Shown here one piece after another: positions 12,142 to 51,965 of a stretch of 64,000 nucleotides of DNA (its first letter is position 1; each line of letters begins with the position of its first letter). This stretch comes from Bacteroidales bacterium (GTDB lineage: Bacteria > Bacteroidota > Bacteroidia > Bacteroidales > UBA12077). Where the stretch lies: assembly GCA_016342685.1 (NCBI GenBank), contig JAEINU010000001.1, positions 824,169-888,168 of the forward strand, given 5' to 3'. Made by a program: the position numbers and the translations under genes. Below the pieces are notes generated by a model. That model had not been told where the DNA came from. It did not search any database and saw only the letters and a list, made by a program, of their open reading frames with translations.

Positions 12142-12145
12142 GATC

Positions 12146-25019: not shown

Positions 25020-25030
25020 TAATAAGTTTA

Positions 25031-25513
25031 TTATTTTTGAATTAAACTGTCATTATTTATTAGAGTATTTTCTATACTTTCAATTTCAAAATCATTTAAG
25101 TATTTATTTTCAGAAAAGACTTTAATATAATCTTGCTCTTCAATATTTAATTCAGAGTATTGTTCTGAATTTCCGGAATATGAACCAATTTGTATTCCAA
25201 TAAATACTGCTATTATAACAGAAGAGAGATACAGGGCTGGTTGCATTATTTTATTATTATATAATCTTGTTAAAACAGAAGTTTTTTGAATAAGATTGCT
25301 TTCTATTTTCTGTTTTAATCTTGTATAATAAAATGCGTGTTCTTCAATATTTTTTGTTGGCTTTAACAAATTAAGCGTATTAATAACGCTGGTATATTTA
25401 CTGTAACATAACGTACAATTATCAAGATGTAATTCAATTGCCTTTCTGTTCTCATCTGATAATGATCCATCAATGTACTTGGATAATATTTTATTTACAT
25501 CTTTACATCTCAT
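25031..25513 (-). CDS. Anti-sigma factor (zf-HC2 type) with single TM
   Basis: N-terminal H-x3-C-x2-C motif (LHLDNCTLC); central TM (LYLSSVIIAVFIGIQIG); located immediately downstream of the ECF sigma gene. Confidence 0.7.
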   Translation of the reverse strand: MRCKDVNKILSKYIDGSLSDENRKAIELHLDNCTLCYSKYTSVINTLNLLKPTKNIEEHAFYYTRLKQKIESNLIQKTSVLTRLYNNKIMQPALYLSSVIIAVFIGIQIGSYSGNSEQYSELNIEEQDYIKVFSENKYLNDFEIESIENTLINNDSLIQK

Positions 25514-25566
25514 TGGTCTATTTTTTGTTATATGACACTTATAATGTGCTTATTATTACAAATTGT

Positions 25567-26136
25567 TTAGTTTTTTTTGTAATAATCAAGTATTAATTTT
25601 TGTAATTTCTTTTTACCTCTATTAATTAAAACTCCAACTTCTGATACAGAAATTTCCATTACTTCTGATATTTCTTTGTACGATAAATCTTCAAAATTAT
25701 TCAGAGTTATAGCTATTCTTTGTTTTTCAGGGAGCTTATTAAGTGCAAAATACAATGCTTTTTTATTTTCGTTACGCTCAAGATCTTCACCAGGCTTTAG
25801 CGCTGTATCTTCAGGATCATTTTTTTTTGAGTCATCATTAAAAAGAACATCTAAACTCGAAAATAATCTATTTTTTTTCTTTGATCTTAAGTAGTTTAAA
25901 GATTTATTAACTGATATTCTGTACAACCAAGTTGTTATTTTAGAATCGCCTCTAAACGATTCGATTGATTCGTAGAACTGAATAAAAACCTCCTGTGAAA
26001 CATCCATAGAATCATCATAGTTGTTTAAAATGTTGTTGCAAATATTTAGTACAAGATGATGATGCATTTCAACAAAGGTTTGAAACGCTTTTTCATCTTT
26101 ATTTGCAATTTTATCTATTAGGATTCTTTCGTCCAT
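25567..26136 (-). CDS. RNA polymerase ECF-type sigma-70 factor
   Basis: Region 2 (FQTFVEMHHHLVLNICNNIL ... WLYRISVNKSLNYLR) and region 4 HTH (LSYKEISEVMEISVSEVGVLINRGKKKL). Confidence 0.85.
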   Translation of the reverse strand: MDERILIDKIANKDEKAFQTFVEMHHHLVLNICNNILNNYDDSMDVSQEVFIQFYESIESFRGDSKITTWLYRISVNKSLNYLRSKKKNRLFSSLDVLFNDDSKKNDPEDTALKPGEDLERNENKKALYFALNKLPEKQRIAITLNNFEDLSYKEISEVMEISVSEVGVLINRGKKKLQKLILDYYKKN

Positions 26137-29068: not shown

Positions 29069-31153
29069 TTAGTTATGTTCAGTCAGATATTTATAAATAT
29101 ATCCATAAAACTCCGAAGTCTCCTTAACATCTTTAAATATTCCTATTGAACCAGAATGCCCGGCATTTTTTATTACTTTCAATAATATTGGATTTTTTTG
29201 GGCATCTCGATTCTGAAGTTTTGCAACAAATTTGTACGAATGAAAAGGAGGCACCCTTTCGTCATTTTCTGAAGTAATAATAAGCATCCCAGGATAATTA
29301 ATATTCTCTTTGATATTATGAAGAGGTGAATAACTTAACAGATTAACAAAATCAGTAGAATCAGAAACAGTACCAAATTCATCAACATGTAAATTACCTA
29401 CGGTGAATTTTTCAAATCTTAACATATCGAATACACCTACAACTGGCACTACCAGCTTGTACAGCTCAGGTCTTTGAATTGCTGATGCAGCAACAATTAA
29501 ACCACCATTTGATCCTCCAGTTATAGCTAATTTATTTGAATTTGTATAATTATTTTTTATTAAGTATTCAGCCGCAGAGTTAAAATCATTAAAAGAATTT
29601 TGTTTATTTTCTCTTCTTCCCTTATTATGCCATTCATGTCCAAAAACACCACTACCTCTTATTTTGGTATACGCCAAAACACCACCATTCTTAATAAAAT
29701 AAATAATACCTGGCTCATAATGTGGCTGAACAATTGATCCAAAACCTCCATATGTTTTAAGTAAAGTTGGATTATCACCATTCAATTCTAAATCTTTATG
29801 ATAGATTAGAAACATGGGAATAACTGTACTATCAGAAGAAAGGTATTCAACTTCTTTGTAAACGATATCTTCGAAATCAAATGTTACCGAGGTATGTTGA
29901 AGCAATTTCCTTTCGAACGTTTGTATGTTAAATTTATAAACTACTGGGGGAAGAGTGTAAGAAGTAAAATAAAACAAAAGTTCAGTATCATCTATATTTC
30001 CATTGAAACCACCTATGGAAGTTGCAATGGGCATTTCAAGAGAGTATAATAAATTTCCATCAAAATCATACACGGTAATAATTGGTCTTTGATTTTTTTG
30101 ATAAATGGCTATAATCTTTTCCTGTAGAATTTTAGTTTCTATTAATACGGATTTCTCGTAAGGTGGTATTATCTCTTTTATATTAAAAGGATTTAATGGA
30201 TCAATTTCGACAATAAAACCTGTATTTGAATTTAAATTTGTACTTGCAATTAGCTTCCCATTTCTACTTTCAAGAATATTAAAATCATCCTTTAAATTCA
30301 TTAAAAGTGGTTTTAATGTAGGATTATCTGATTTATAATCAATGTAAAATATATTTCTTTTTCCTAGGTCTTCATAATCTTCTTTAAGAATAAAGAATCT
30401 TTCATTCGAACTTACGGTAAATTGAAAATCAATTTTAGGATTATTTCTTTTGAAAATTAATTTATCTTCATCTTGATGTTTACCTATTTCATGATAGTAT
30501 ATTTTTTCTCCCAGTGTTGGAGAAAATTTATCTGCTTTGGGATATTTTGAATAGAAAAATCCATTTCCTAACCATTCAATATTTGAGAATTTTATATCTG
30601 TTAAATGATCTTTTAAGTGTATTCCTGTTTTTAGGTTTATAACTTTAACTTCAGCCCAATCACTGCCATTTCTGTCAAATTGATAAGCTAAATATTTTGA
30701 ATCTTTAGACACCGAATAAGCCTTTAATGTAATTTGGTCTTGTTTTGAGATAAAATTTGGATCAACTAAAATTTCTCCAGGTTGATTTAAGTTTGTTTTG
30801 TAAAATAAAGCAGGTAACCCGACCACATTATAATATGCATAGGAGAAATAATACTTACCTTTTTTAACTGGTCTTGAATATTTTGTGTATGAATATTTAT
30901 CGATATTTTTAAAAGCTTGATTTTTATTTATAGCCTTTTGTAACTGTTTTTTAGATATTTTATTTTGCTCATTTATCCAAATTTTAACTTCTTCATTATT
31001 TATATCTTCCATCCATCTGAATCCATCTTCTACAATATAAGCATTAAAAAATGTATCAATAACAGGAATTTCTCTAGCAAAAGGAAATTCAATTTCTTGG
31101 CTAAATATATTATTTGCAATTAATAATAAGGTAAACAAAAATATTTTTCTCAT
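29069..31153 (-). CDS. S9A prolyl oligopeptidase family serine peptidase (secreted), paralogue 2
   Basis: About 65% identical to 26289-28373 over the full length; GGSNGGL motif; signal peptide. Confidence 0.85.
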   Translation of the reverse strand: MRKIFLFTLLLIANNIFSQEIEFPFAREIPVIDTFFNAYIVEDGFRWMEDINNEEVKIWINEQNKISKKQLQKAINKNQAFKNIDKYSYTKYSRPVKKGKYYFSYAYYNVVGLPALFYKTNLNQPGEILVDPNFISKQDQITLKAYSVSKDSKYLAYQFDRNGSDWAEVKVINLKTGIHLKDHLTDIKFSNIEWLGNGFFYSKYPKADKFSPTLGEKIYYHEIGKHQDEDKLIFKRNNPKIDFQFTVSSNERFFILKEDYEDLGKRNIFYIDYKSDNPTLKPLLMNLKDDFNILESRNGKLIASTNLNSNTGFIVEIDPLNPFNIKEIIPPYEKSVLIETKILQEKIIAIYQKNQRPIITVYDFDGNLLYSLEMPIATSIGGFNGNIDDTELLFYFTSYTLPPVVYKFNIQTFERKLLQHTSVTFDFEDIVYKEVEYLSSDSTVIPMFLIYHKDLELNGDNPTLLKTYGGFGSIVQPHYEPGIIYFIKNGGVLAYTKIRGSGVFGHEWHNKGRRENKQNSFNDFNSAAEYLIKNNYTNSNKLAITGGSNGGLIVAASAIQRPELYKLVVPVVGVFDMLRFEKFTVGNLHVDEFGTVSDSTDFVNLLSYSPLHNIKENINYPGMLIITSENDERVPPFHSYKFVAKLQNRDAQKNPILLKVIKNAGHSGSIGIFKDVKETSEFYGYIYKYLTEHN

Positions 31154-35884: not shown

Positions 35885-37888
35885 ATGAGAATTTTTGATG
35901 GATTATTCAAGAGGATTGTTATAATTTTTTTGATTATTATTTTGCTGTGGTTTTTGTTTTCTAATGTTATAATATTCTCATTATTTACAGAAGTAGAAAA
36001 TTATAATCTTATTAAAGAGCATGTTGATTGGGCTTTTGTAATTTTTTCATTTATTCTAATCTATTTTTTAATAAATAGAGAATTTATTAAAAGGAATTAT
36101 AGAAAAGCAGTCATAGCAGCAGAGCAAAATCTGTACAAAACAATATTCGAAACTGCTCATGATGCAATTTATCTATTAAATGATCAATATGAATTTGTTG
36201 ACTGTAATAAGGAAACACTTGACATGTTTCAATGTACAAAAGAGCAAATTATAGGTAAAAAACCTTTTGATGTTTCTCCTTATTTTCAGTTTGGTGAGGT
36301 GAAATCAGAAATGCTATCAACTGAAAAAATGAGTCAAGCAAAAAATGGAAAACCTCAATTTTTTGAATGGTTACATACTAATTTAAAAAAGGATAAATTA
36401 TTTTTTACAGAGGTTTCACTTAATAGATTGGTAATTTCAGGTGAAATTTTTTTATTAGCAGTTATCAGAGATATTTCTAAAAGAAAAAAGGCTGAAAGTA
36501 CATTAACAGAAAGCGAAAAAAAATATCGTCGATTAACTGAAAATTCTCCCAATATAACTTACATTTTTTCAGTAAAAAGAGGTGCTTTATATTGGTCTTC
36601 TAAAGTAAAGGATATTCTTGGTTTTGATTCTGAGAATTTATTAAACAATACACTAAAATGGGGGAATTCAATACATCTAGAAGATAGACCTAAAATAAAA
36701 CTTTTTTTTACAAATATTCAAGTTGGAAAAACATACGAAATAGAATATAGAATATATGATATTCATAAAAAGATACATTGGTTTTATGACAGGATATTTA
36801 ATGTGAGGGAAGAAGATGGAGATATTATTTTAGAAGGTATAATATCAGATATTACGAAACAAAAGGAAACAGAACATATTCTAAAAATAAGTGAAGAAAA
36901 ATATAAGGCACAATATGATTATTTCCCTATACCAATATATACTTTTAAAAAGCAAGGCAAAGACTTATATATCACAGATGTAAATAACGCAGCAAAAAAT
37001 TATCCTTTTGTTAAAGCCGAAGAAATAATAGGAAGGAATGTGACTGACTTTGTTGAAAATAAAGAAGAAATGGTGCTTCTTGATGTTTTAAATGAAACGT
37101 TCAAAATAAAACAAGACCAGAAATTAGAAATGGCCTATAGGTTTAAAACAACAGGTGTAAAAAGAAATATAACTGCCGTTATTGGATTTGTTCCACCCGA
37201 TTCTGTGTTGTTATCTACAATTGATGTAACAGATAAAAGAAATGCACAGCAAAAGGTTTATCATGCAATGATTAATGCGGAGGAACGAGAAAGAAGTCGA
37301 ATTGCTAAAGAATTACATGATGGTGTTTCTCCAATATTGTCGGCTACTAAGCTTTATATACAAACCTTATTGAATTTGAAAGATGAAAAAACAAGGGGTG
37401 AAATATCTAATAAGATTAATAATACAATAAATGAGGCGATTCAAAGTGTATCCGATATCTCAAATAAGCTGAGTCCTCACATTCTTCAAAATTTTGGTTT
37501 ATCTACGGCAATACAATCTTTTTTTGATAAGATAACTGAGATTGCAAATATTCATCATAGTTTTTTTTATAATATTAATAGTAAGCTTGATGAAGATATT
37601 GAAGTTAATATTTATCGAATATTAGTTGAACTTATTAATAATACTGTAAAGTATGCCAATGCAAAAAACATTATCATTAATATTCAAGAAAAGGGAGATG
37701 TAATTAAGATATTTTTTGAACATAACGGTAAGGGTTTTAATATTGAAGAAGTTAGAAGTAAATCTAGGGGCATGGGCTTATATAATTTAGATAATAGAAT
37801 AAATTTATTAAATGGTGATTTCGATATTGAATCTGATATTAAAACTGGACTGAAAGTAAAAATTACTTTTCCTTTAAATATAGAATAA
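35885..37888 (+). CDS. Membrane sensor histidine kinase with three PAS domains and HisKA_3/HATPase_c core (NarL-partner type)
   Basis: Two N-terminal TMs; PAS repeats; H-box ERERSRIAKELHDGVSPIL (HisKA_3); C-terminal ATPase G-boxes. Confidence 0.8.
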   Translation: MRIFDGLFKRIVIIFLIIILLWFLFSNVIIFSLFTEVENYNLIKEHVDWAFVIFSFILIYFLINREFIKRNYRKAVIAAEQNLYKTIFETAHDAIYLLNDQYEFVDCNKETLDMFQCTKEQIIGKKPFDVSPYFQFGEVKSEMLSTEKMSQAKNGKPQFFEWLHTNLKKDKLFFTEVSLNRLVISGEIFLLAVIRDISKRKKAESTLTESEKKYRRLTENSPNITYIFSVKRGALYWSSKVKDILGFDSENLLNNTLKWGNSIHLEDRPKIKLFFTNIQVGKTYEIEYRIYDIHKKIHWFYDRIFNVREEDGDIILEGIISDITKQKETEHILKISEEKYKAQYDYFPIPIYTFKKQGKDLYITDVNNAAKNYPFVKAEEIIGRNVTDFVENKEEMVLLDVLNETFKIKQDQKLEMAYRFKTTGVKRNITAVIGFVPPDSVLLSTIDVTDKRNAQQKVYHAMINAEERERSRIAKELHDGVSPILSATKLYIQTLLNLKDEKTRGEISNKINNTINEAIQSVSDISNKLSPHILQNFGLSTAIQSFFDKITEIANIHHSFFYNINSKLDEDIEVNIYRILVELINNTVKYANAKNIIINIQEKGDVIKIFFEHNGKGFNIEEVRSKSRGMGLYNLDNRINLLNGDFDIESDIKTGLKVKITFPLNIE

Positions 37889-37889
37889 A

Positions 37890-38543
37890 ATGAGCAAAAT
37901 AATTAATATAATTATTGTTGATGACCATGCAATTTTTAGAGATGGTTTGAAATCATTATTATCACAGATCCCAAATTTTTATGTTTTGGATGAAGCAAAA
38001 ACGGGATTGGATTTTTTGAATATTTTACAAAATAGAAAGCCAGATATTGTATTGATGGATATCTCGATGCCCGAGTTAGATGGGGATGAAGCCACAGAAA
38101 AGGCTTTACTACAATATCCAGATCTTAAAATAATAGCACTTTCCAGTTATAGTGATCATATTTATTACTACAAAATGATTAGAGCTGGAGTACAGGGGTT
38201 TGTATTAAAGAAATCGGGTAGAGAAGAACTTGAAGAAGCAATAAATACCGTTTTTAAGGGTGAAAACTATTTTCCTCAGGATATCTTAAGAAATTTAATA
38301 TTTAAATTAGGAAATACAGGAATTGAATCCGTTTTAGATGATCATGTTTCTCTTTCAAAAAGAGAAAAAGAAGTGTTACAATTAATTTGTCAGGGATTTA
38401 CAAATATTGAGATTGCTGAAAAACTTCACATTAGTCCTAAAACCGTAGATAATCACAGAACCAAATTGTTGTCAAAAACCAATACTAAGAATTCAGCTCA
38501 TCTTGTTATGTTTGCTATCAAGAATCACTTAATAGAAGTCTAG
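37890..38543 (+). CDS. NarL/FixJ-family response regulator (REC + LuxR-type HTH)
   Basis: REC domain (IIVDDH ... VLMDISMP ... ALSSY); LuxR HTH (REKEVLQLICQGFTNIEIAEKLHISPKTVDNHRTKL). Start is 2 bp after the kinase stop. Confidence 0.85.
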   Translation: MSKIINIIIVDDHAIFRDGLKSLLSQIPNFYVLDEAKTGLDFLNILQNRKPDIVLMDISMPELDGDEATEKALLQYPDLKIIALSSYSDHIYYYKMIRAGVQGFVLKKSGREELEEAINTVFKGENYFPQDILRNLIFKLGNTGIESVLDDHVSLSKREKEVLQLICQGFTNIEIAEKLHISPKTVDNHRTKLLSKTNTKNSAHLVMFAIKNHLIEV

Positions 38544-38585
38544 AAATTAAGTGATTTATAGTTATATCTCTAGTTTTTTAAAGTA

Positions 38586-38630
38586 AAATTAGGGGATTTA
38601 CCCTATCGATTTAGTGTTTTCCCCTCTTAT
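38586..38630 (+). promoter_or_regulatory. Conserved 45-bp element with inverted repeat (AGGGGA..24 bp..TCCCCT, inner GGGGAtttACCC), 46 bp upstream of the cheY-like gene; copy 1
   Basis: 42/45 identical to the copy at 42770-42814. Same spacing to the start codon in both copies. Lies just downstream of the NarL-type regulator gene. Confidence 0.55.
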
Positions 38631-38676
38631 TACTTATTGAATAGTAAATTATTTTTGGCATTAAAATATTAGTGCC

Positions 38677-39090
38677 GTGAAAATAATAATTGTTGATGAC
38701 AATAAAACTTTTAGAGAAAGCCTGAAATATTATGTGGAAGACGAACTTTTGCATGAAGTTATCGCTATGGCGGTAGATGGACTGGAGTTTCTAAAAATTG
38801 AAAATATTCATAAAGCCGACATCGTTTTAATGGATATAGAAATGCCTAATTTAAATGGCATTGAAACTACAAAAAGAGCTTTGAATGATTACCCTGCTTT
38901 AAAAATTGTGGCAATTACAAATTATACCGATAGAGCTTATCTTATTGACTTGTTAAGTGCTGGATTTAAGGGCTGTGTTTTTAAGAATAGTGTTTACGAT
39001 GATCTTAAGAATGCTCTTTCTAATTTGTTTTCTAACAAGTTATATTTTCCAAATAACATATTAACAATAAGGAATATAGTAAACAAATAA
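38677..39090 (+). CDS. cheY: CheY-like single-domain response regulator (GTG start), module A
   Basis: Receiver residues present: DD (7-8), D in LMDIEMP, T in AITNY, K in FKGCVFK; no output domain. Confidence 0.7.
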   Translation: MKIIIVDDNKTFRESLKYYVEDELLHEVIAMAVDGLEFLKIENIHKADIVLMDIEMPNLNGIETTKRALNDYPALKIVAITNYTDRAYLIDLLSAGFKGCVFKNSVYDDLKNALSNLFSNKLYFPNNILTIRNIVNK

Positions 39091-39100
39091 TATATTATAT

Positions 39101-39574
39101 ATGGAGATAGACAGCAAAACACAAATTAACTCCTATTTAACGTTTAAAATTGGAGTTGAAGAGTTCGGAATTCAAGTAAATAAAGTACTAAATATTCTTG
39201 AATTGCAAGAAATTACAAATGTTCCAAAATCTCCTGAGTATATGAAAGGAGTTATTAATTTAAGAGGAACAATTCTTCCAATAATTGATACTCGGATTAA
39301 ATTTGAAATGACTCCAACTGAGTTTACAGATGATACATGTATTGTGGTGATGGATTTAGTAGTAGAAGATGAGATAATGCATGTTGGAGCCTTGGTCGAT
39401 TCTGTTGTTGCAGTTCGTGAAATTGATGAAAGTCAAATTAATCCATCTCCGAATATTGGTAAAAGTTATAAATCAGAATTTATTTCTGGACTCGTTAAAA
39501 TTAATGAAAGCTTTGTCATGATTTTGGATGTAATTAAGCTTTTTACAGGTGAAGATTTAAAGGATTTAAATTAA
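39101..39574 (+). CDS. cheW: Chemotaxis coupling protein CheW, module A
   Basis: Classic CheW core LTFKIGVEEFGIQVNKVLNILE...PKSPEYMKGVINLRGTILPIIDTR. Confidence 0.85.
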   Translation: MEIDSKTQINSYLTFKIGVEEFGIQVNKVLNILELQEITNVPKSPEYMKGVINLRGTILPIIDTRIKFEMTPTEFTDDTCIVVMDLVVEDEIMHVGALVDSVVAVREIDESQINPSPNIGKSYKSEFISGLVKINESFVMILDVIKLFTGEDLKDLN

Positions 39575-39631
39575 AAAAGGAATTATAAAATGACGTTTAA
39601 TAATTAAAAATTAGTAATAACACAATTAATT

Positions 39632-40378
39632 ATGAAAAGAAGAATAGTTTTAATAATTGTATTAATACTAATAAGCTTTAGCGGTTTTTCACAGGATATA
39701 ACATTAGTCAATAAGGATTCTAAATCTTATACCGATATAGGAGCCGATATTGTAAGTAGTTATGTTTGGAGAGGTTTGCAAGTTGATGCATCTCCTAATA
39801 TTCAAGGATGGGGAGAGTTTGGTAATAATTTTTTTAATTTTGGTGTTTGGGCTTCTAGTAATTTTAATGGAAGTTATGTAGAAGCAGATGTTTATGCAGG
39901 ATTCACAATCGGAGGATTTAACGCTTTACTAACGGATTATTTTGTGGGATCGGATGATTTTTTCAACTTTGATAAAAATACAACTACTCATGTAGCAGAA
40001 TTAGCTCTACAATACACAATAAGTGATAATTTCCCTTTGCAATTTACATTTGGAACATTAATTTTTGGAGACGATAAACAAATTGCTTCAGTTGATTTAA
40101 ATGATGATCCTGTTTTTAATAATAAGAATAATTTTTCTTCTTACATCGAACTTATGTACACAATTACACATCGAAATACTGAAATTTCATTTGTTGCTGG
40201 CGGAGTAACTCATGAAAGTTATTATTATTCCAGCGAAAGAGCTTCCATTATAAATTTGGGAGTTGTAGCTTCTAAAGAAATAAAAATTACAGATAATTTT
40301 AGTTTACCTATATCTTTTGGATTGACAGTAAATCCAGAGCTTGAGAGTATATATACTGTTGTAGGTATCACATTATAA
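39632..40378 (+). CDS. Outer-membrane beta-barrel protein, possibly TorF-like putative porin, module A
   Basis: Signal peptide; YVWRGLQVD motif resembling the TorF/Gcw_chp family; alternating beta-strand pattern; C-terminal aromatic-rich strand. Confidence 0.45.
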   Translation: MKRRIVLIIVLILISFSGFSQDITLVNKDSKSYTDIGADIVSSYVWRGLQVDASPNIQGWGEFGNNFFNFGVWASSNFNGSYVEADVYAGFTIGGFNALLTDYFVGSDDFFNFDKNTTTHVAELALQYTISDNFPLQFTFGTLIFGDDKQIASVDLNDDPVFNNKNNFSSYIELMYTITHRNTEISFVAGGVTHESYYYSSERASIINLGVVASKEIKITDNFSLPISFGLTVNPELESIYTVVGITL

Positions 40379-40401
40379 ATCATTAGATTAATTAATAAGT
40401 T

Positions 40402-42474
40402 ATGAGAACAAATTCAATAAAAACAAAACTTTCTCTTGTTTTAGGAGTGATAATATTAATTGCAATAGCAATAATAATTACGGTGTCAAGCATTAATGGA
40501 AACAAAGTTGCCATTGAGAATGCAGAAAACAAGATGGTATCTACTTTAGAGAATTCCACACAAAAACTCGAAAATATTATTAATAAAAATATTTTGGAAA
40601 TGGAAGCTCATTGGAATGATTTAAAAGTTTTGATTCAATATGAAAATTTTGATAGAACACAAGTTCAGGATATTTATAAAAATATGCTGAAAAAAGATGC
40701 TTCTGCCATTGGATATACAATATGTCTTAAGCCTGGTTGTTTTGATGGCAAATCTGATGATTATAAAGGATATCCAGGTTATTATTCTGATGGACGTTTT
40801 AGTGAGTATTTATATAAGGAAGGTAATCAAATCTTAAGAGATGAATTGACCATTTCTTTTGAACAGGATCTTCAAGAGGCAGGTTCTGATTGGTGGAGAA
40901 TACCGGAAAAGACAAAAGAAAACTTTATCTATATGGATATATACAATGTTGGTGGGAAAGACGTATTAATGGTTTCTGTTACATATACAATACTTCGTAA
41001 CAACGAATTTATTGGAGTAATATGTAAAGATTTTATTAGTGAATTTATACAGCAAGAAGCTATAGAAGCAAATAGTAAACTTTTTAAAGGTCAAGGTAAT
41101 ATAGAAATATACGATCAGGATGGAAATATAGCTGCAGATACTAAAAATGCAGAAAATGTAGGGAAGGATCTCAAAACTATATCAAATGAAAATTACTCAG
41201 AAATTATAAGTTCAATAAAACAGGGAGAAGAAAGAACTTATAAAGAAAATGGTAATTACTACTGTGTAGTTCCTATTAAATTTAATGGAAGTACATCGAA
41301 TTGGCAAATGAGAGTAGAGATTCCTGAAAATGTAATAAAAGAAAAAGCAATGTTGCTAATGAGAAATCAGCTTATAATTGGATTATTTTCAATTTGTATA
41401 AGTATTCTTATTATATTTTTAATTGTAAAAAGAATGCTTAATCCATTAAACAGTTTAACCGCCTTTTCTGAAAAAGTAGCACAAGGTATTCTTTATGAAA
41501 ATATTAATATTGACAGGGATGACGAAATAGGTCAGTTAGCTAAAGCATTTTCTATAATGATGAGTAGAATTAGAGAAGTAGTTAATGGAGTAAAAGATAA
41601 TGCCGATAATCTTGTTAGTGCTAGTCAACAATTGAGTTCAAGTTCAGAAGAAATGTCCCAAGGTGCATCCGAACAAGCATCGTCAACAGAAGAAGTTTCT
41701 TCATCAATGGAAGAGATGTCGTCTAATATTCAACAAAATACAGATAATGCACAGGAAACAGAAAAAATATCTGTTGTGGCTGCAAAAGGAATATCGGAGG
41801 TTGAAAAGGCTGCTAAAGAAAGTTTAACATCAATTAAGCAAATTGCAGATAAAATAACCATTGTTAACGACATTGCATTTCAAACGAATATTTTAGCATT
41901 AAATGCTGCTGTCGAAGCTGCTAGGGCAGGAGAGCACGGTAGAGGTTTTGCTGTTGTTGCTGCCGAAGTAAGAAAATTAGCAGAGCGTAGTAAAATTGCT
42001 GCCGACGAAATAGTTTCCTTATCTACTTATAGTGTTAAAGCAACTGCAGACGCAGGAGAACTAATGTCAAAAATAATTCCGGAGGTTGAAAAAACTGCAA
42101 GATTAGTGCAGGAGATTACTGCTGCTAGCTTAGAGCAAAATTCAGGTGCCGATCAAATAAATAGTGCGATACAGCAATTAAATCAGGTAACTCAGCAAAA
42201 TGCTGCGGCAAGCGAAGAAATGTCTACAAGTTCAGAAGAGCTTTCTAGTCAAGCTGAACAACTTAAGGATATGGTGAGTTTCTTCAAGGTAGATAATTCT
42301 GAAAATTATATGGGCGTTAGGTCTAATACTTTACAACAGTTTAATCAAGATTCAAAATTTGTAAAAACTGCAGGATCAAACGGTAGTAAGAACAAAAAGG
42401 TTCTTGATGAAAAAGGGTTTGATCTTAATTTAAATGAATCTAATAAAATAGATAATGAATTTGAATCATTTTAG
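40402..42474 (+). CDS. Methyl-accepting chemotaxis protein with periplasmic double-Cache-like sensor, HAMP and MCP signalling domain (MCP1)
   Basis: TM1/TM2 flank a ~285-aa extracytoplasmic domain; HAMP; highly conserved MCP signalling core ([40 protein letters not shown]); C-terminal NEFESF. Confidence 0.9.
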
Positions 42475-42534: not shown

Positions 42535-42769
42535 ATTTCTAAATAATTCTGTCTGAACTTATAACTCTAAAGGTGATTTATGGTATTATCAATATGTCAA
42601 TCAATTCTATTTAAAAAGAGCAGGCTGGTATCGAATAGCAGAACCAATTTATTGTAAAAAACAATTCAAAGAATGAAGCTTATCCGATTATGTTTATTAT
42701 CTAACATTATTTACTACAGACGCATAAATTAGAAAATATTTAATTAGATCTCTCCTCGTTTTTAAAATG

Positions 42770-42814
42770 AAATTAGGGTATTTACCCTATCAATTTAGTG
42801 TTTTCCCCTCTTAT
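42770..42814 (+). promoter_or_regulatory. Conserved 45-bp inverted-repeat element, copy 2, 46 bp upstream of the cheY-like gene of module B
   Basis: Near-identical to 38586-38630; contains perfect GGGTA-TT-TACCC palindrome. Confidence 0.55.
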
Positions 42815-42860
42815 ATTTTTTCGACCATTAAGTTATTTTTGATATTTAAATAAGAAAGCT

Positions 42861-43265
42861 TTGAAAATAATAATTGTTGATGATAGTAATGTTTTTAAGG
42901 AAAGTATAAAATATTATTTGGAAAAAATGCTTTCGCATGAAGTTATTAATATGGCAGGAAATGGAGTTGAGTTTCTAAAAATAGAAGATTCATATGAGGC
43001 AGATGTTATTTTAATGGATATAGAGATGCCCCTTTTAAATGGTTTTGAAACTGCGAAAAGAGCATTGTATGAAAATCCCGCCTTGAAACTAATAGCCATA
43101 ACAAATTATTCAGATAGAGTTTATCTTGTAGATCTAATTAGTGCCGGTTTTAAGGCTTGTGTTTTTAAAAGCAATATTTACCAAGAGCTTGAAAAAGTTT
43201 TTTCCAAATTGCATTCAAAAAAGTTGTGCTTCCCCAAAAACATAATGTTAATGAATAATCAATAA
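42861..43265 (+). CDS. cheY: CheY-like single-domain response regulator (TTG start), module B
   Basis: About 60% identical to module A CheY; conserved receiver residues. Confidence 0.7.
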   Translation: MKIIIVDDSNVFKESIKYYLEKMLSHEVINMAGNGVEFLKIEDSYEADVILMDIEMPLLNGFETAKRALYENPALKLIAITNYSDRVYLVDLISAGFKACVFKSNIYQELEKVFSKLHSKKLCFPKNIMLMNNQ

Positions 43266-43283
43266 CCAAATAATATTCGAATT

Positions 43284-43787
43284 ATGGAAATAGAAACTAA
43301 AATAAAAATTGATTCTTATTTAACTTTTAAGATCGGTGATGAAGAATTTGGAGCACATGTAAATAAAGTGCTTAATATTCTTGAGTTACAAAATATTACG
43401 AAAGTTCCTAAATCTCCGGAGTATATGAAAGGAATTATTAACTTGAGAGGAAAAGTGCTTCCAGTTATTGATACTCGGATCAAATTTAATATGAATCCAA
43501 CTGAGTTTACCGATGATACCTGCATTGTAGTTATGGATCTAGAAATTGAAGATGATGTTATACATATAGGGGCTCTAGTCGATTCTGTTGTTGCTGTTCG
43601 AGAAATTGATGAAAATCAAATTAATCCTCCACCAAGTATTGGGAAAAGTTATAAGTCCGAATTTATTACAGGAATAGTTAAAGTTAATGAAAGGTTTGTG
43701 CAGATTTTGGATTTAGTAAAGCTTTTTACTGGTACAGAATTGAGTGAATTAAAGAAATCACAAAACAAGGTAAATGAAGAAGATTAA
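43284..43787 (+). CDS. cheW: Chemotaxis coupling protein CheW, module B
   Basis: About 75% identical to module A CheW. Confidence 0.85.
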   Translation: MEIETKIKIDSYLTFKIGDEEFGAHVNKVLNILELQNITKVPKSPEYMKGIINLRGKVLPVIDTRIKFNMNPTEFTDDTCIVVMDLEIEDDVIHIGALVDSVVAVREIDENQINPPPSIGKSYKSEFITGIVKVNERFVQILDLVKLFTGTELSELKKSQNKVNEED

Positions 43788-44772
43788 AATTCTATTTACG
43801 GTTTATTTACTGATTTTAACTGCAACTATGTTTGCTAATGATTCAGATTCTGTTGATATCTATCCTAAAACAAAACCAATTATTAAGGTTTTTGGGAATT
43901 ATCATTTTGGATTAAACGATTATTCAACCGTGAATGCTTTTGAACTAACAAGGGCATATTTGGGTTATGATGTAAAAGTATCCGAAAATATTAGTTTTAA
44001 AACCAATATAGACATGGGTCGACCAACATCCGATAGCAAATATGATTATGTTGCATACTTAAAAACTGCTGCTTTAAAATATCATAAAGGCAAAATACAG
44101 ATTAACGCTGGATTGATTGGTTTAAAGCAATTTAAATTGCAAGAAAAAATATGGGGACACAGATATGTTTATAAATCTCTTCAAGATGAGCATAAGTTTG
44201 GACATAGTGCAGATTTAGGTGTTATGCTAGAGTATAAACTAATTGATGGTTTATTTATAGATGCAACGATAAGGAACGGAGAAGGATATAAAAAATTACA
44301 ATCAGACGAAACCTTTAATGGAGCGCTGGGAATTACGTATCACGTTTGGAAAAATATTGTTGTAAGAGGTTCATATGAACATTCAGAGAAATCTATAAAT
44401 CAATCTGTTTATTCTGGGTTAATAGGATTTCAAATGAAAGATGTAATACTTATGGGAGTTGAATATAATTATATGCAAAACTCTTCATATATCAAAAATC
44501 ATAATTTAACTGGTTATTCTGCTTACCTAACATTTATTATGAATGATAAGTTTCAGTTATTTGGGCGATACGATAATTTGAAATCAAACAAAATAAATGA
44601 TGAAATTATTTCATGGAACGAATCAAATGATGGAGAAGCAATAATCGCAGGTGTACAATATAAATTAGAGAAGAATTTAAAGGTATCTACTAATTTACAA
44701 TATTGGGCGCCCGATAAAAATAGTTTAAATAAAGAAGTTTACGCTTTTATAAGTTTAGAGTATAAATTATAA
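43774..44772 (+). CDS. Outer-membrane beta-barrel porin-like protein, module B (family differs from the module A barrel)
   Basis: Signal peptide; ~16 amphipathic beta strands; C-terminal strand ISLEYKL; overlaps CheW-B stop by 14 bp (translational coupling). Confidence 0.45.
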   Translation: MKKIKILFTVYLLILTATMFANDSDSVDIYPKTKPIIKVFGNYHFGLNDYSTVNAFELTRAYLGYDVKVSENISFKTNIDMGRPTSDSKYDYVAYLKTAALKYHKGKIQINAGLIGLKQFKLQEKIWGHRYVYKSLQDEHKFGHSADLGVMLEYKLIDGLFIDATIRNGEGYKKLQSDETFNGALGITYHVWKNIVVRGSYEHSEKSINQSVYSGLIGFQMKDVILMGVEYNYMQNSSYIKNHNLTGYSAYLTFIMNDKFQLFGRYDNLKSNKINDEIISWNESNDGEAIIAGVQYKLEKNLKVSTNLQYWAPDKNSLNKEVYAFISLEYKL

Positions 44773-44784
44773 AAATTATAAAAA

Positions 44785-46782
44785 ATGAAAAATTTAAGAA
44801 TAGGTACAAAACTAGCTATTGGATTTATTATTGTAATTGGTATTAGTGTAGTTATTGGTCTTGTCGGTTATACAGGCATGCATTCTTTAAACGACAGAAT
44901 TGATAAAACAGAAGATGCGCACTCTGTTAGTAAAATGGCTTTAGATTTAAGAAGATATGAAAAGGACTTTATGCTTCGTCATGATGAAAAATCGATACAA
45001 GGCGGAACTAAAACCCTAGAGTCTATTTATGGTCAAATAGAAGAGTCTAAGTTGAAGTTTAAAGATCAAAAGGATTTAGATGATCTTGATGTATTAAAAC
45101 AAAAAGGAGATAATTATAAAGATGCTCTAACTGAGTATGTTAGAATTTACCAAGAAGACTATACTTTTAATATAGAGAAAACCATAAAAGAAGGAGAAAA
45201 AGCCATTGAGTTAGCTAAGGCGCTTCAATTATCTCAAAAACAACAAATGATCGATGAATTAGCAAAAGAAGTAAATAAGAATTTCTTGCTTAAACGTTTT
45301 GAAAAAAATGAACTGTCAAATGATATTCTAGAATCTTTTGCTGTAATACGTATAGATGCTAAAGGTTTTGTAATTAGTCGTGATCAAAAAGACGGCGCAA
45401 AAGTTATTGAGCAATTGGATCTTTTACTTGATAAAATTGACTATACAAAGAAGTTGATGAAAAAGAAAGTTGATATTCAGCAGCTTGAAGAGATGTATAA
45501 TGCGGTTGATGTTTATAAAAACGCTTTTGAAAAATCAGTTGAAGTTGTTGCTTTACAGGAAGATGAAGCCGATGTGATGGTAAGTTCAGCTCATGAATTT
45601 ATTGCTGTTGCTGATAAGTTAAAAGATGGTCAGTCTTTAAAAATGGTAAAAGAAGAACAGCGAGCTAGTTCTATGATTATAAGTTTTATGATTCTTGGAA
45701 TTATTTTAGGTGTTGTTATGGCATATATAATTACTCGAGGGATTATAACCGGACTTAGAAAAGGAGTCGATTTTGCAACTGCTATTGCAAAGGGAGATTT
45801 AACAGCAGAAATTGATATTGATCAGAAAGATGAAATAGGTTTATTAGCAAGATCATTAAAGATCATGGTTTTAAAACTTAAAGAGATTGTTTCTGATATA
45901 ACATCTGGAGCTGAAAATATTGCATCTGCAAGTCAGCAATTAAGTTCTGGATCAGAGGAAATGTCGCAAGGTGCATCAGAACAAGCATCATCTACAGAAG
46001 AAGTTTCATCATCAATGGAAGAAATGACTTCAAATATTCAACAAAATACTGATAATGCACAAGAAACGGAAAAGATATCAGTTATGGCAGCCAAAGGAAT
46101 CTCAGATGTTGAAAAGGCAGCTAAAGAAAGTTTAACATCGATTAAACAAATTGCAGAAAAAATTACAATTGTTAATGATATTGCATTTCAAACAAATATT
46201 TTAGCTTTAAATGCTGCTGTCGAAGCTGCTAGAGCAGGAGAGCATGGTAGAGGTTTTGCAGTTGTTGCAGCTGAGGTTCGCAAATTAGCCGAACGAAGTA
46301 AAGTGGCAGCTGATGAAATAATTTCATTATCGACATATAGTGTTAAGGCAACCGAAGAATCTGGTGAATTAATGTCTAAAATAATACCTGAAATTGATAA
46401 AACAGCAAGATTGGTGCAAGAGATTACGGCTTCTAGTTTAGAACAAAATTCAGGTGCCGATCAAATAAATGGTGCGATACAGCAATTAAATCAGGTAACT
46501 CAACAAAATGCAGCTGCCAGCGAAGAAATGTCTACAAGTTCAGAAGAACTATCTAGTCAAGCAGAACAACTTAAAGATGTTGTAAGTTTTTTCACCTTGA
46601 ATGATAAAACAAGAAATTTTAAGGGTAGTAAAAACACTTTAAAAGAATTTAAATTTGAAAAGCAAGACACACGCACAGATCGTATTAAAAAAGAATCTGC
46701 TGGTCATAGTGAAAATGCTAAAGGCTTTGATTTAAAATTGAATACAAACGACAATATGGATAAAGATTTTGAATCGTTTTAG
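44785..46782 (+). CDS. Methyl-accepting chemotaxis protein with all-helical periplasmic sensor (4HB/HBM-like), HAMP and MCP signalling domain (MCP2)
   Basis: Two TMs flank a ~265-aa helical domain; signalling domain ~90% identical to MCP1; C-terminal KDFESF. Confidence 0.9.
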
Positions 46783-46811: not shown

Positions 46812-46842
46812 AAAAAGGGGCTGTTTAAAAAGCCCCTTTTTT
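46812..46842 (+). terminator. Rho-independent terminator after MCP2
   Basis: AAAAAGGGGCT / AGCCCCTTTTTT hairpin. Confidence 0.65.
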
Positions 46843-47000
46843 AATGTGTACACTCGACATGTTTAGTGTAGGGTGTTGGTAATTAGCTGTTTGTAATATT
46901 GATTTTATCAAAATATGAATAGCTTTTTTACTTTTTGGACAGTTCCTTCCTTATTTAAATAATAAAATAAAAATTAACATTTATTACATTATAAATGAAG

Positions 47001-47065
47001 AAAGGGCGTTTTACTTTTTCAATTACTTATTGTTCGAAACTTTAATATTGTCGTTAGACGATAGT
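47001..47065 (+). promoter_or_regulatory. Conserved ~65-bp non-coding element (copy 1) upstream of MCP3
   Basis: About 80% identical to 49786-49857. Contains TTTACTTTTTCAA, TATTGTTCGAAAC and a TCGTTAGACGA near-palindrome. Confidence 0.45.
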
Positions 47066-47356
47066 TACAACAATATGCTTTCTTCTGCTGATGAATTAAC
47101 TTCAAAAACCGCATTAATAAGATGAAGTTACTAACAGGTTCATATACAGAATCCTGTCTTTTTTTGTTTAAAAAAAGTATGTAAAACCCGAACTTTATCG
47201 AAAAAATGCAGTAAGAATAAACATTAATTCAATATTACAAATACAATATACATATTATACTTAATCGATAATTTGGAATTAATTAAAATATTATTGCAAA
47301 TAACTATCCTTCAAATGGGTAGTGCATAAGTTTATGAAAATTAAGTCGCTATTTCT

Positions 47357-49420
47357 ATGAAAAGAACACTTTCTATTCGGTCCAAACTAATTTATTTGGT
47401 TTTGATTACATGCATGCTTATATACTCTATAACAATTGCATACTTAATAATTAATTTAAAGTCATCATCACTAGAAGATGCTAAAAGACTGGTAGAAGAA
47501 TCAATTAAAACAGGAGCAAAAGAAATTGAAGCTGAATTGAACTTGCATATGGGGGTTGCTCGCAGTTTGGCTTATACCATGTCCGATTTCGAAAATATAT
47601 CTATTGAGAATAGAAGCCAATTTTACAATCCTATTTTAAGTAAAACATTAGATGCTAATCCGAATTACATTGGTACATATTTCACAATGGAATTAAGTGC
47701 ATACGATCCAGAATGGGGAAATGCTCCTGGCAGGGAATCAAAAATATTTTACAAAGATAAAGGAACAATTCATTACAATGAAGTTATACATGATGTTGGA
47801 GGAGTTAAGAAAAGAACAGGATATCATAAGGTAAAAGATACCATGAAGGAAGCAATATGGGAGCCATACTGGTGTGATACATATTCAACCGAAGCAGGAA
47901 GAGTACTCGAAACAACACTTGGTGTACCAATTATTATAGAAGGTCAATTCATGGGACTAGCAGGAATTGATATTGAGCTTAGTGTTTTTAAAGAATTAAT
48001 TGCTAAGATACAGCCTTTTAAGGATGGTTATGCCTTTCTACTATCGAATGAATCAACCTATGTTGCTCACCCTGATCCTGCTTGCATAGCAAAAAAATTC
48101 GATGAAGAAAATCCGGATGAAGAGCAATTGTACCATATAAGTGAAAAAATTAAAAATGGCGAAAGTTTTTCTTTTGAGGCAATACATACAGATTCAAACA
48201 ATGATTTATATGTAAAATTTGTGCCAGTGCATATCGCAAGTACTACAACACCTTGGTCACTTGGAATATTAGTTCCTATTAATTCAATTATGGTGAATTC
48301 GAACCGAATTATAAAAATCACGCTCATTGCAGGTTTTATTGGATTACTCATTCTGTTTTTAGTTATCTCAAATGTTAGCCGTAGCATTATTAAACCCATT
48401 AAGGATAGTGTTGATTTTGCTGAAAAAATTAGCCAAGGTGATTTGAATGCTAAATTAGATTTCGATTCAAATGACGAAATTGGCATTTTGGCTAAACATT
48501 TAATGAGTATGACCGAAAAGTTTAAAGAAGTTGTTGAGCAAATAAAGCAAAGCGGTGATGAAATAAATCAGGCCAGTATAAGGATTTATAAAAACTCAGA
48601 TCAACTTGCTTCAGGAGCCAATAGTCAGGTGGCAGCAACCGAGGAAGTTTCTTCTTCAATGGAAGAAATGATTGCTAATATTCAACAGAATACAGATAAT
48701 GCTCAGTTAACTGAGAAAATTACTTTGGTTGCAGCAGACGGTATAAATAAGGGAAATGCATCAACTGAAATTTCTGTAAAGTCGATGAGAAAGATTGCAG
48801 AAAAAATAACAATTATAAATGATATTGCATTCCAAACTAATATTTTAGCGCTAAATGCGGCTGTTGAAGCAGCAAGAGCAGGAGAACATGGTAAAGGATT
48901 TGCAGTTGTGGCTGCCGAAGTAAGAAAATTAGCTGAAAGAAGTAAAATTGCTTCGGATGAAATAAATCAACTTTCGCGTGAAGGAGTTCTAATTTCTGAA
49001 GAAGCTGGAGAACAATTGGCAGAAATTGTTCCAGAAATCGAGAAAACGTCAAAATTAGTTCAAGAAATTGCTGCAGCTAGTATGGAGCAAAATAGTGGTG
49101 CTGATCAAATTAATAGTGCAATACAACAATTAAATAAAATAACTCAACAAAACGCCGCTGCTAGTGAAGAAATGGCAACTAGCTCGGAAGAGCTTACTCA
49201 TCAGGCAGATCAATTAAATCATGTTGTAAGTTTCTTTAAAATTAGTGATGATTCAAAAATATACAATAGGAAAAAGTCTTTAAAACAACCTAAAGCTGAA
49301 AATTATTACAAAAACACAAATATTAAAAATGAAGATTCTATTCAAAGTAAAAATGTTAAAGGTTTTGATTTAAAGCTAAATACAACTGATAATATGGATA
49401 AGGATTTTGAATCGTTTTAG
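47357..49420 (+). CDS. Methyl-accepting chemotaxis protein with periplasmic double-Cache-like sensor (MCP3)
   Basis: Two TMs; Cache-like ~285-aa sensor; HAMP; MCP core; C-terminal KDFESF. Confidence 0.9.
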
Positions 49421-49445
49421 CAACAAAAAATAATTTTCAATTTTG

Positions 49446-49484
49446 GAAAAAAGGAGAACATATATAACATGCTCTCCTTTTTTT
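49446..49484 (+). terminator. Rho-independent terminator after MCP3
   Basis: AGGAGAACAT / ATGCTCTCCT stem plus T8. Confidence 0.55.
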
Positions 49485-49785
49485 ATTTTCTAGTTAATGG
49501 TTAAAACCCTGCAATTTCAATGTAGCTACTCTAGTTTCTATAAATTTCAATTAAAATTAAATCTACAATGTTCAAGTTTAAAGTAAATCACAAAACGTAA
49601 TATTCAAAGTCCAATATTTAGGTTTGGGTCATTAATGTGTAATGTTTTTATATTTTGAATATTGGATATTATTTGATATTTGTTAATTGTTATCTGGTGC
49701 TTGCTAAAGGAATTTTATTTGTAATCTATAGTGGTTAAGTTAAATGATGAAATAAGAATGAACAATTATTAAATTATAACTGATT

Positions 49786-49857
49786 AAAGGAAACTTTACT
49801 TTTTCAAATGCGTATTGTTCGATACTTTAATTTTATCGTTAAACGATAAATGTAATT
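49786..49857 (+). promoter_or_regulatory. Conserved ~65-bp non-coding element (copy 2) ending 19 bp upstream of MCP4; contains perfect palindrome ATCGTTaAACGAT
   Basis: Alignment with 47001-47065; palindrome read directly. Confidence 0.45.
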
Positions 49858-49875
49858 TGTAAAATATGTATATAT

Positions 49876-51900
49876 ATGAAATGGAAAAATTTAAAATTAG
49901 GAAGAAAGTTTCTTATCTCTTTTGGTTTAATCATAATGCTTCTGGTTGTTGTTGCTTTTTGGTCAATTAATGGTATAGGAGGAATTGTAAATGATGCCGA
50001 AGAAGTAATCGAAGGAAATAAACTTAGAGCGGATTTGGAAAATAAATATGTTCAACATCTTCAGTGGGCATCTAAAGTAAATAAATTATTAACTGATGAG
50101 AATGAAACGGTGCTCAATGTTCAAACCGATCCACATAAATGTGATTTTGGTAAGTGGTATTATAGTGAAGGGAGAAAACATGCAGAATCGCTAGCTCCTG
50201 AATTAAAATCTCTATTCGATGAGATTGAAGAACCTCACTTACATTTGCATGAATCAGCAACAAAGATAAATAATGTTTTTCATCAGGCCGACGTAACATT
50301 TGGAGACAAGCTTAGGGATGTAAAGAGTGCTCATTTGTTATGGGCACATTCAATTAAAGATGCTTTATTGCAACAAAAAAAGACCCTTGCTGTACAAACT
50401 GATCATCATAAATGTGAATTTGGGATATGGTTGGATTCGGATGAAATTATTCAAATGAGAAAAGAAGATCCAGAGTTAGACAGGTTATTAGTTAAGATCA
50501 TAGAACCTCATGAAAAACTTCACACAAGTGCTGTTCAGATACAAAATTATCTTTCACAAAGAAACTTTAATGCAGCTTATAATTATTATAATAACAATAC
50601 AAATAATTATGCGATAGCAACTTTAGATTTAATAGATGATGTCATTGCTTGGAATGATAAACATGTCCAAGGTATGAAGGAAGCCAATGCAATTTATAAT
50701 AATGAAACATTAGTTAACCTAGAACAAGTTGGAGATTTATTTTCTAAGATAGTTGAAAAATCAAAGGAGTATATTCTTACTGAAGATGTAATGCTTCAAC
50801 AAGCGGGAATTACAAGGGTAGGAGTAATTATTTTTAGTGTAATTGCCTCATGTATAGCAATTGTAGTGGCATTTTTTATTACACGTGGAATTGTAAATCC
50901 TGTAAAAAAATCAGTTGAATTTGCAAAAAAAGTAGCAAATGGTGATTTAACTGCTACTGTTGAAATTGATCAAAAAGACGAAATAGGAGTTCTAGCAAGT
51001 TCATTGAAAGATATGGTAGGTGAGTTGCGCAAAATTGTTGTAAATATTCAGGATGGTGCAGCCAATATCACTAGTGCAAGTTTAGAGATGAGTTCAACTT
51101 CTCAACAGATGTCACAAGGTGCTTCGGAGCAGTCTACTTCAACCGAGGAAGTTTCTTCATCAATGGAAGAAATGACATCTAATATTCAACAGAATACTGA
51201 TAATTCAAAGCAAACTGAAAAAATATCATTAGCTGCTGCAGAAGGAATTACGAATGTTGCAAATGCTGCGGATGAGAGTTTAATATCTATTAAACAAATT
51301 GCAGAAAAAATTACAATAGTCAATGATATTGCATTTCAAACAAATATTTTAGCATTAAATGCTGCAGTAGAAGCTGCTCGTGCAGGAGAACATGGAAAAG
51401 GTTTTGCAGTTGTTGCTGCTGAGGTTAGAAAGCTTGCAGAGCGAAGTAAAATTGCTGCCGATGAAATTAACGATCTTTCAAGAAGTAGTTTAGACGTTAC
51501 TAATGAAACAAGTGCATTAATGAAGAATATTATTCCTGAAATTGAAAAAACAGCTAGTTTGGTGCAGGAAATTACAGCATCTAGCTTGGAACAAAATTCA
51601 GGAGCGGATCAAATTAATAGTGCTATTCAACAATTAAACCTAGTAACGCAGCAAAATGCCGCAGCAAGCGAAGAAATGGCTACAAGTTCAGAAGAGTTAT
51701 CAAGCCAAGCTGAACAGTTAAAAGATATCTTAGGTTTCTTTAAGGTTGATAGAAAAAATATAAATAAATTGGAAAGATCTTATTCTTTAAAGCCAAGCTT
51801 GTCAAAAAGTGCTTTAGGGAAAAAATCAAAGATTGATATAGTTAAGAATCAAGGCCTTGATTTAAAAGATAATCTCGATAGTGAATTTGAATCGTTTTAG
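49876..51900 (+). CDS. Methyl-accepting chemotaxis protein with two tandem periplasmic CZB (chemoreceptor zinc-binding)-like domains (MCP4)
   Basis: Between TM1 (res 12-31) and TM2 (res 313-333): HLQW...[12 protein letters not shown]...EEPHLHLH and HLLW...[12 protein letters not shown]...EPHEKLH. This matches the CZB H-x3-C ... H ... H zinc site twice. HAMP; MCP core; C-terminal SEFESF. Confidence 0.85.
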
Positions 51901-51932
51901 ATAAAAATTAGTTTGTTTAAAATTTGTGTTTT

Positions 51933-51965
51933 AAAAAAGGAGAATGGTTCTATTCTCCTTTTTTA
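51933..51965. terminator. Bidirectional terminator between MCP4 and the convergent VOC gene
   Basis: GGAGAAT / ATTCTCC stem with flanking A and T runs; overlaps the last codons of the minus-strand gene. Confidence 0.5.

Follow-up and report, generated by a model that had tools for sequence, protein, structure and literature searches.

A short repeat upstream of two tandem chemoreceptor genes in an uncultured Bacteroidales genome: a probable promoter and operator region and its drifting duplicate

Two neighbouring chemoreceptor genes of an uncultured Bacteroidales MAG, here termed MCP3 and MCP4, are preceded by copies of one short non-coding sequence that lie at very different distances from the two start codons. 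The question raised by this locus is what such a sequence does: a preliminary description had seen in the unequal distances a portable regulatory site or a small structured RNA as opposed to a fixed promoter element, and the simplest reading of a short repeat before two tandem paralogues is a co-duplicated promoter. The answer bears on chemoreceptor gene regulation in the Bacteroidota, a group that to our knowledge is not known for flagellar chemotaxis, and neither fliA nor flagellar genes were noted in the window, the whole 64-kb stretch of DNA that was analysed (~30% G+C).

The repeat and its gene setting

Four chemoreceptor genes (MCP1 to MCP4) were found in tandem on the plus strand, with MCP3 and MCP4 free-standing and each placed after a strong intrinsic terminator:

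40402–42474, plus strand: MCP1, ending the first RR-CheW-MCP module
44785–46782, plus strand: MCP2, with an HBM sensor, ending the second RR-CheW-MCP module
46812–46841, plus strand: MCP2 intrinsic terminator (hairpin of −17.1 kcal/mol, z = −4.7, then a T-run), isolating the MCP3 unit
47357–49420, plus strand: MCP3, a dCache-HAMP-MCPsignal chemoreceptor (Pfam)
49446–49484, plus strand: MCP3 intrinsic terminator (hairpin of −15.0 kcal/mol, z = −5.2, then a T-run), isolating the MCP4 unit
49876–51900, plus strand: MCP4, a CZB-HAMP-MCPsignal chemoreceptor (Pfam)

The MCP4 product is 100% identical to a protein from a 'Bacteroidales bacterium' MAG. The equivalent of the MCP3 terminator in the related metagenomic locus L001 has a hairpin of −19.2 kcal/mol (z = −6.6). 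The 3' signalling halves of the four MCP genes share 62–86% DNA identity, and the array is therefore prone to homologous recombination. The modules ending in MCP1 and MCP2 form a tandem duplication (38564–42474 and 42748–46782; 76–86% DNA identity in parts), each composed of a response regulator, CheW, one further gene, and the MCP. The further gene had no Pfam match in the first module and codes for an outer-membrane beta-barrel-like protein in the second, and we know of no such order, a duplicated chemotaxis-like module with a porin-like gene, for flagella. Directly upstream of the che cluster, in the same place as in the closely related locus L018, a PAS-HisKA_3 sensor kinase and a REC-GerE (NarL/LuxR-type) response regulator are encoded (35885–38543) and are candidate regulators of the cluster. 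Elsewhere in the window, two paralogous prolyl oligopeptidase (S9) genes, both of 694 aa, lie on the minus strand (26289–28373 and 29069–31153) with a YdeI/OmdA-like gene between them.

The two-copy repeat had been put at ~65 bp and ~80% identity, and all the strings quoted for it were found in their places. It proved longer than claimed, since a repeat finder gave a gapless repeat of 109 nt (46955–47063 against 49740–49848) with 82% identity, and ~140 nt of pairwise alignment between both stretches had 84% column identity. On the 3' side of 47063/49848 a 6-nt gap was needed and the similarity then faded, with a shared AATATG remaining. A core of 62 nt was used for both copies, which match each other at 51 of the 62 positions:

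46955–47001, plus strand: A/T-rich upstream extension of copy 1, within the 109-nt repeat
47002–47063, plus strand: core, MCP3 copy, paralogous to the MCP4 copy and separated from the MCP3 ATG by 293 nt
49740–49786, plus strand: A/T-rich upstream extension of copy 2, within the 109-nt repeat
49787–49848, plus strand: core, MCP4 copy (AAGGAAAC TTTACTTTTTCAA ATGCG TATTGTTCGATACTT TAATTTTAT CGTTAAACGATA), the proposed MCP4 promoter/operator

The distances to the start codons reported previously (292 and 19 nt) are correct for the end points then chosen and become 293 and 27 nt when counted from the end of the core. A 37-nt degenerate consensus (TTTACTTTTTCAA-N5-TATTGTTCGA-N-ACTTTAAT) matched the 64-kb window exactly twice (0.00 matches expected from 100 shuffles), and no weaker copies of the consensus blocks were detected elsewhere in the window, giving two copies in total. 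The MCP3-copy core is bracketed by a perfect 8-nt inverted repeat (GAAGAAAG / CTTTCTTC at 46997–47004 and 47078–47085) that is partly kept in the MCP3 copies of L001 and L008 and absent from the MCP4 copies.

Selection on the MCP4 copy and apparent drift of the MCP3 copy

Copy-by-copy comparison of orthologues reveals which copy is under selection. Both copies were also present in the metagenomic loci L001–L003 (MCP4 of 83% amino-acid identity) and L008/L022 (81%), and the copies compared amounted to nine sequences, seven of them independent, as both L022 copies equal those of L008. The four-fold degenerate sites of MCP4, used as the neutral benchmark, were 0.57 and 0.56 identical between the window and L001 and L008, respectively. 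The MCP4 core was identical at 58 of 62 positions in L001 (P = 1.4e-10 under the neutral rate) and at 60 of 62 in L008 (P = 3e-13). The 27-nt spacer between the core and the MCP4 ATG was of equal length and 81–85% identical in the same two comparisons, so that the core-to-ATG distance is 27 nt in all three MCP4-carrying lineages. These values, which rest on about three independent lineages and carry no base-by-base resolution, indicate that the MCP4 copy is under strong purifying selection, and this supports a cis-regulatory role.

The MCP3 copy behaved otherwise. The four-fold degenerate sites of MCP3 were 0.71 and 0.69 identical between the window and L001 and L008, and the MCP3-copy core matched its L001 orthologue at 43 of 62 positions (69%; P = 0.67 against the four-fold-site rate), which is comparable to the rest of the MCP3 leader (68%). 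Against L018, 59 of 62 positions were identical, including the whole downstream 37 nt, with flanks at 0.916 (P = 0.22). The MCP3 copies of the window and L001 each carry ~10 differences from the MCP4 copy at mostly non-overlapping positions, with one shared derived change, as expected of a recent duplicate drifting independently in each lineage. The blocks TTTACTTTT, TGTTCGA, and CGTTA-N-AC are intact in most MCP3 copies, although runs of such length are by our estimate statistically not unusual, and the MCP3 copy may retain a residual function. On these comparisons it has the look of a weakly constrained duplicate, drifting at a near-neutral rate, and this better explains the large distance at MCP3. 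The argument from unequal distances consequently fails, since the distant copy is the non-conserved one.

The MCP3 leader between the element and the gene (47064–47356 in the window; 7423–7766 in L001) is non-coding, 290–350 nt long with a 55-nt indel, and keeps the short blocks AATATGCTTTCTT, TTGTTTAAAAAA, and TTGGAATT between lineages; no conserved ORF and no Rfam match were found in it. Three candidates were rejected here. An ORF (MLSSADELTSK...) recalling an MCP C-terminal motif was considered as a pseudogene remnant, and blastn-short and tblastx searches of 47060–47360 against the rest of the window gave chance-level matches only. The small ORFs within and downstream of the element agree in neither frame nor length among the window, L001, and L018, and a terminator-like hairpin with T-run at 47134–47166 (−8.4 kcal/mol, z = −0.7) is absent from L001 and specific to the window lineage.

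The space upstream of MCP4 places the promoter more closely. In L001 and L008 the end of the MCP3 terminator lies 108 nt from the MCP4 ATG, and the core occupies 62 of these 108 nt. Because the core fills most of this interval in L001, the element should contain the MCP4 promoter: on the layout of the locus, that promoter must lie in or overlap the element unless MCP4 expression depends entirely on transcripts that read through a strong terminator. A constant spacing before the ATG likewise fits a promoter role, and for MCP4 the contention that the element is not a fixed promoter is contradicted by the spacing constant in three lineages and by the mostly filled interval in L001. The A/T-rich ~46 nt upstream of the MCP4 core appear dispensable, as L001 and L008 are without the extension there, the MCP3 terminator standing in its place; the corresponding extension is partly kept in the MCP3 copies of these loci. 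Of the proposed regulatory site, then, the cis-regulatory role gained support from the selection on the MCP4 copy and the portability did not.

Based on this evidence, we consider it rather more probable than otherwise that the free-standing CZB chemoreceptor gene MCP4 has its promoter and operator region at 49787–49848 and that the MCP3 copy is a drifting duplicate of that region. The MCP4 upstream region would have been duplicated or converted in front of MCP3, within the tandem array, shortly before the lineages of the window and L001 split. The MCP4 copy would since have been held by selection while the MCP3 copy drifted approximately neutrally.

Candidate promoter boxes and operator

The features discussed in this section are the following, every promoter assignment among them being a consensus match noticed after the fact:

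47048–47064, no strand assigned: degenerate palindrome of the MCP3 copy (TTGTCGTT-A-GACGATAG)
47327–47334, plus strand: candidate MCP3 proximal promoter (TAAGTTTA), a sigma-A −7-like box with one mismatch, 30 nt upstream of the MCP3 start codon
49789–49814, plus strand: ECF-sigma-like candidate promoter by consensus match (GGAAAC at 49789–49794, 16 nt, CGTA at 49811–49814)
49833–49849, no strand assigned: perfect 17-bp palindrome of the MCP4 copy (TTATCGTT-A-AACGATAA), a candidate operator to which a dimeric helix-turn-helix regulator would bind

Promoters of the Bacteroidota primary sigma factor (sigma-A / sigma-ABfr) carry TAnnTTTG at −7 and TTTG near −33 (PMC7366714, PMC9723704). An exact −7 box was found nowhere within the 150 nt upstream of MCP3 or MCP4, where only one-mismatch variants occur; two of them (TACTTTTT and TAATTTTA) lie inside the element and miss the conserved final G. 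The element resembles these promoters in its position within the last ~90 nt before the start codon of a Bacteroidales gene, but it differs from them in having no exact −7 box, whereas both neighbouring RR-CheW-MCP operons have one (TATTTTTG) 27 nt before their first gene.

The closest formal resemblance was to promoters of ECF sigma factors, which in group 4 are characterized by AAC in the −35 box and CGT in the −10 box at a spacing of 16–17 nt (Staron et al. 2009, cited in PMC9723704) and which in Flavobacterium are marked by a CGT −10 box (motif SM6 of Flavobacterium psychrophilum; PMC9723704). Boxes of this type at this spacing are present at 49789–49814. The string GGAAAC-N16-CGTA was found in 5/7 independent copies, comprising all MCP4 copies and the MCP3 copies of L001 and L008, and both boxes were lost jointly in the MCP3 copies of the window and L018 (GGGCGT / CTTA). 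The looser pattern GAAAC-N15-18-CGTA is expected by chance 0.72 times per window with both strands counted. The presence of the boxes in every MCP4 copy, upstream of a gene without a canonical sigma-A −7 box, is as in ECF promoters; in contrast, the 'spacer' of the element and 35 nt downstream are as conserved as the boxes themselves, which is untypical of a bare sigma site.

ECF sigma factors usually control their own expression through a promoter bearing the same motif. The sole ECF sigma gene of the window (25567–26136) has no GGAAAC-N16-CGTA upstream, and a link of the element to the ECF sigma/anti-sigma pair at 25031–26136 was rejected, as the region upstream of the sigma gene shares no motif with it. 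This gene apparently forms one unit on the minus strand (24465–26136) with a zf-HC2 anti-sigma (25031–25513) and a weak Metal_resist-like protein (24465–25019).

Other sigma classes were set aside. Class III chemoreceptor-gene promoters of flagellated bacteria, recognized by sigma-28 (FliA), read TAAA-N15-GCCGATAA. The element is like them in being upstream of MCP genes and in containing CGATAA/CGATAC and unlike them in having no TAAA at the required spacing; TAAA-N14-17-CGATAA matched at two places in the window, neither of them in the element. The sigma-54 consensus did not fit by eye.

Downstream of the candidate boxes, the perfect palindrome noted previously in the second copy was confirmed and extends beyond the length then given (TTATCGTT-A-AACGATAA); the first copy has a degenerate version only. 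In copies other than the MCP4 copy of the window, 5–7 of the 8 positions per arm match; over all copies, 85% of cells are paired and 7/48 are broken. The MCP4 orthologues of L001 and L008 read CGTTAAACAAT, a G-to-A change in the palindrome core that breaks a C-G pair. Copy 2 holds four TATCG-type half-sites (TATCG/CGATA), of which two lie beyond the palindrome. Palindromic operators are typical of dimeric helix-turn-helix regulators such as those of the NarL/LuxR (GerE-type) family, and an inverted repeat of the usual ~16–20 bp is found near the candidate promoter, at 49833–49849. The likeness to such operators consists of the 17-bp perfect inverted repeat between the candidate promoter and the MCP4 ATG and of the REC-GerE regulator gene adjoining the cluster; the unlikeness is that the symmetry is imperfect in all copies but one. 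The palindrome and further half-sites would suit a dimeric helix-turn-helix protein, for which the REC-GerE regulator is a lead only.

In the promoter and operator reading, RNA polymerase with an alternative ECF-type sigma would use GGAAAC-N16-CGTA and start near 49820, which would put both the palindrome and the TGTTCGATAC block between about +1 and +30, the usual location of an operator. The TGTTCGATAC block and TTATCGTT-A-AACGATAA would then serve as operator sites for a dimeric helix-turn-helix regulator, with the REC-GerE response regulator beside the che cluster (37890–38543) as a candidate. MCP3 would probably rely on its proximal TAAGTTTA box, which is identical in L018 and reads TAAGGTTA in L001, so that the MCP3 copy would be a remnant or, at best, an upstream site of auxiliary role. 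The element would work like an ordinary promoter/operator region, with its best formal resemblance to ECF-type promoters and a further one to palindromic helix-turn-helix operators, and it opens no new class. We know of few alternative-sigma motifs in the Bacteroidota, and if the promoter reading is right, this single lineage-specific promoter/operator offers a test case for non-canonical, possibly ECF-type, promoters of the group.

Other explanations and the distribution of the element

A distance-independent transcription-factor site was also weighed, in which both copies, with their TATCG / CGATA half-sites in alternating orientation, bind one regulator of MCP3 and MCP4 and the promoters lie elsewhere. 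The four half-sites and the perfect palindrome of copy 2 would suit it, as would the lack of any difference between the window and L018 in the last 37 nt of the MCP3 copy, the REC-GerE regulator and PAS kinase that flank the che cluster in L018 also, and the separate candidate proximal promoter at MCP3. However, between the window and L001 the MCP3 copy was conserved no better than neutral sites (43/62 against 0.71), its half-sites being the most altered parts in L001 and L008 (TAACCG, CGATTT). In addition, L001 leaves hardly any space outside the element for an MCP4 promoter, and no further sites were found in the window and related loci. We regard this explanation as unlikely, though worth keeping in view.

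A bolder extension of the promoter and operator reading, for which we see only a slim chance, is a dedicated two-part switch, an ECF-type promoter combined with a palindromic operator, that would travel with the CZB chemoreceptor cassette (promoter, gene, and terminator) and be gained and lost among closely related, apparently non-flagellated Bacteroidales. If true, expression of a zinc- or oxidant-sensing chemoreceptor would be linked both with the neighbouring PAS kinase / REC-GerE system and with an envelope- or stress-responsive sigma factor. In L018/L019, the closest relative (98% identical in MCP3), only the MCP3 copy is present, because MCP4 is missing altogether, together with its upstream element and terminator. 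The MCP4 cassette (upstream region, gene, and terminator; window 49421–51960, ~2.5 kb) is absent from L018, where ~170 nt are found instead (12008–12180). This replacement sequence includes a ~130-nt segment bounded by 16-nt inverted repeats (AGAGGGTGTCCAAAAA ... TTTTTGGACACCCTCT) that looks like a miniature inverted-repeat element.

An RNA element in the 5' UTR or a small RNA, for instance with alternative CGAUA/UAUCG/CGAUA hairpins, had been among the readings first proposed and fared poorly. UAUCG is able to pair with CGAUA on either side of it, the palindrome helix has two pairs that are changed on both sides, and 5' UTRs longer than 100 nt occur in 13.5% of B. thetaiotaomicron mRNAs (PMC7366714). 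No stable fold was found, however, with z from −1.43 to +1.21 against shuffled sequences for both strands, and the copies do not share a minimum-energy fold. The consensus fold of six copies reached −4.76 kcal/mol with a covariation term of +0.64, which is of unfavourable sign. The analysis of covariation that had been proposed as a check was unconvincing: among copies from some three independent lineages, 7/48 cells of the palindrome helix are broken, and the broken cells include the C-G pair of the MCP4 orthologues, which are under constraint. A search of Rfam at E up to 10 gave a best match of E = 0.33, and no weak match covers the core; the hairpin and T-run of the MCP3 leader are weak and missing in L001. 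A long-range pairing of TTTACTTTTT with AAAAAGTGAAG ~190 nt downstream, predicted by RNAalifold, was rejected, as it rests on three A/T-rich sequences and ACTTTTTYAA-like words are no more frequent than by chance (61 found, 65 expected). Nothing favours a structured RNA, a result that is not final at about three independent lineages, and we give this explanation little credence.

A remnant of gene duplication or gene conversion without function at either place would be compatible with a recombining tandem array of MCP genes, with a closest relative that has neither MCP4 nor its element, and with the near-neutral rate of the MCP3 copy. It does not account for an MCP4 copy that is 94–97% identical where neutral sites are 56–57% identical, unless exactly that segment had been transferred very recently, and is accordingly very improbable.

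The distribution of the element was determined with an exact 23-base pattern in 185,579 species genomes (GTDB) and the JGI metagenome collection, which returned orthologous loci only, plus three matches in unrelated contexts. These three were rejected as chance matches: one just upstream of a metallo-beta-lactamase gene in L006 (4969–4996; contig RDOE01000008.1, labelled Promethearchaeota archaeon), attributable to the A/T-rich pattern, one at a gene end in L007, and one inside a GNAT ORF in L010. A second pattern had no match in viral contigs, and a similarity search of plasmids matched only the A/T-rich low-complexity flank. The portability proposed in the preliminary description is thus opposed by the confinement of the two window copies to one tandem MCP array and by the lack of dispersed copies in the genome, metagenome, viral, and plasmid collections. 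Of the two signs on which that description was to stand or fall, further copies elsewhere were not found in the collections and conservation in relatives was (L001–L003, L008/L022). By these scans, which for the source genome covered the 64-kb window, the element is confined to a pair of neighbouring genes in a narrow clade and not portable. A mobile repeat (MITE- or REP-like) inserted before two genes, to which the two similar intergenic copies, the internal palindrome of a short non-coding repeat, and the 8-nt inverted repeat flanking the MCP3 copy would correspond, is very unlikely and the least credible explanation, since there are only two copies in the window and collections scanned, at equivalent places in one paralogous array with similar 3' gene ends, and neither terminal inverted repeats with target-site duplication nor, at the MCP4 copies, the 8-nt flank were found.

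Distant MCP3/MCP4 homologues of 56–72% identity (L004, L005, L011–L017, L020, and L021) yielded no detectable copy; in L011 a weak, gapped resemblance precedes cheW. The CZB-MCP gene of distant relatives usually follows RR and/or CheW genes, mostly within ~40 nt. In L004 (10001–12043), L005 (10001–12046), and L011 (6001–8037) the CZB receptor lies 11–37 nt after CheW, as part of a larger cheA/cheR/cheD/cheB cluster. A free-standing MCP4 with a promoter of its own may be the derived arrangement.
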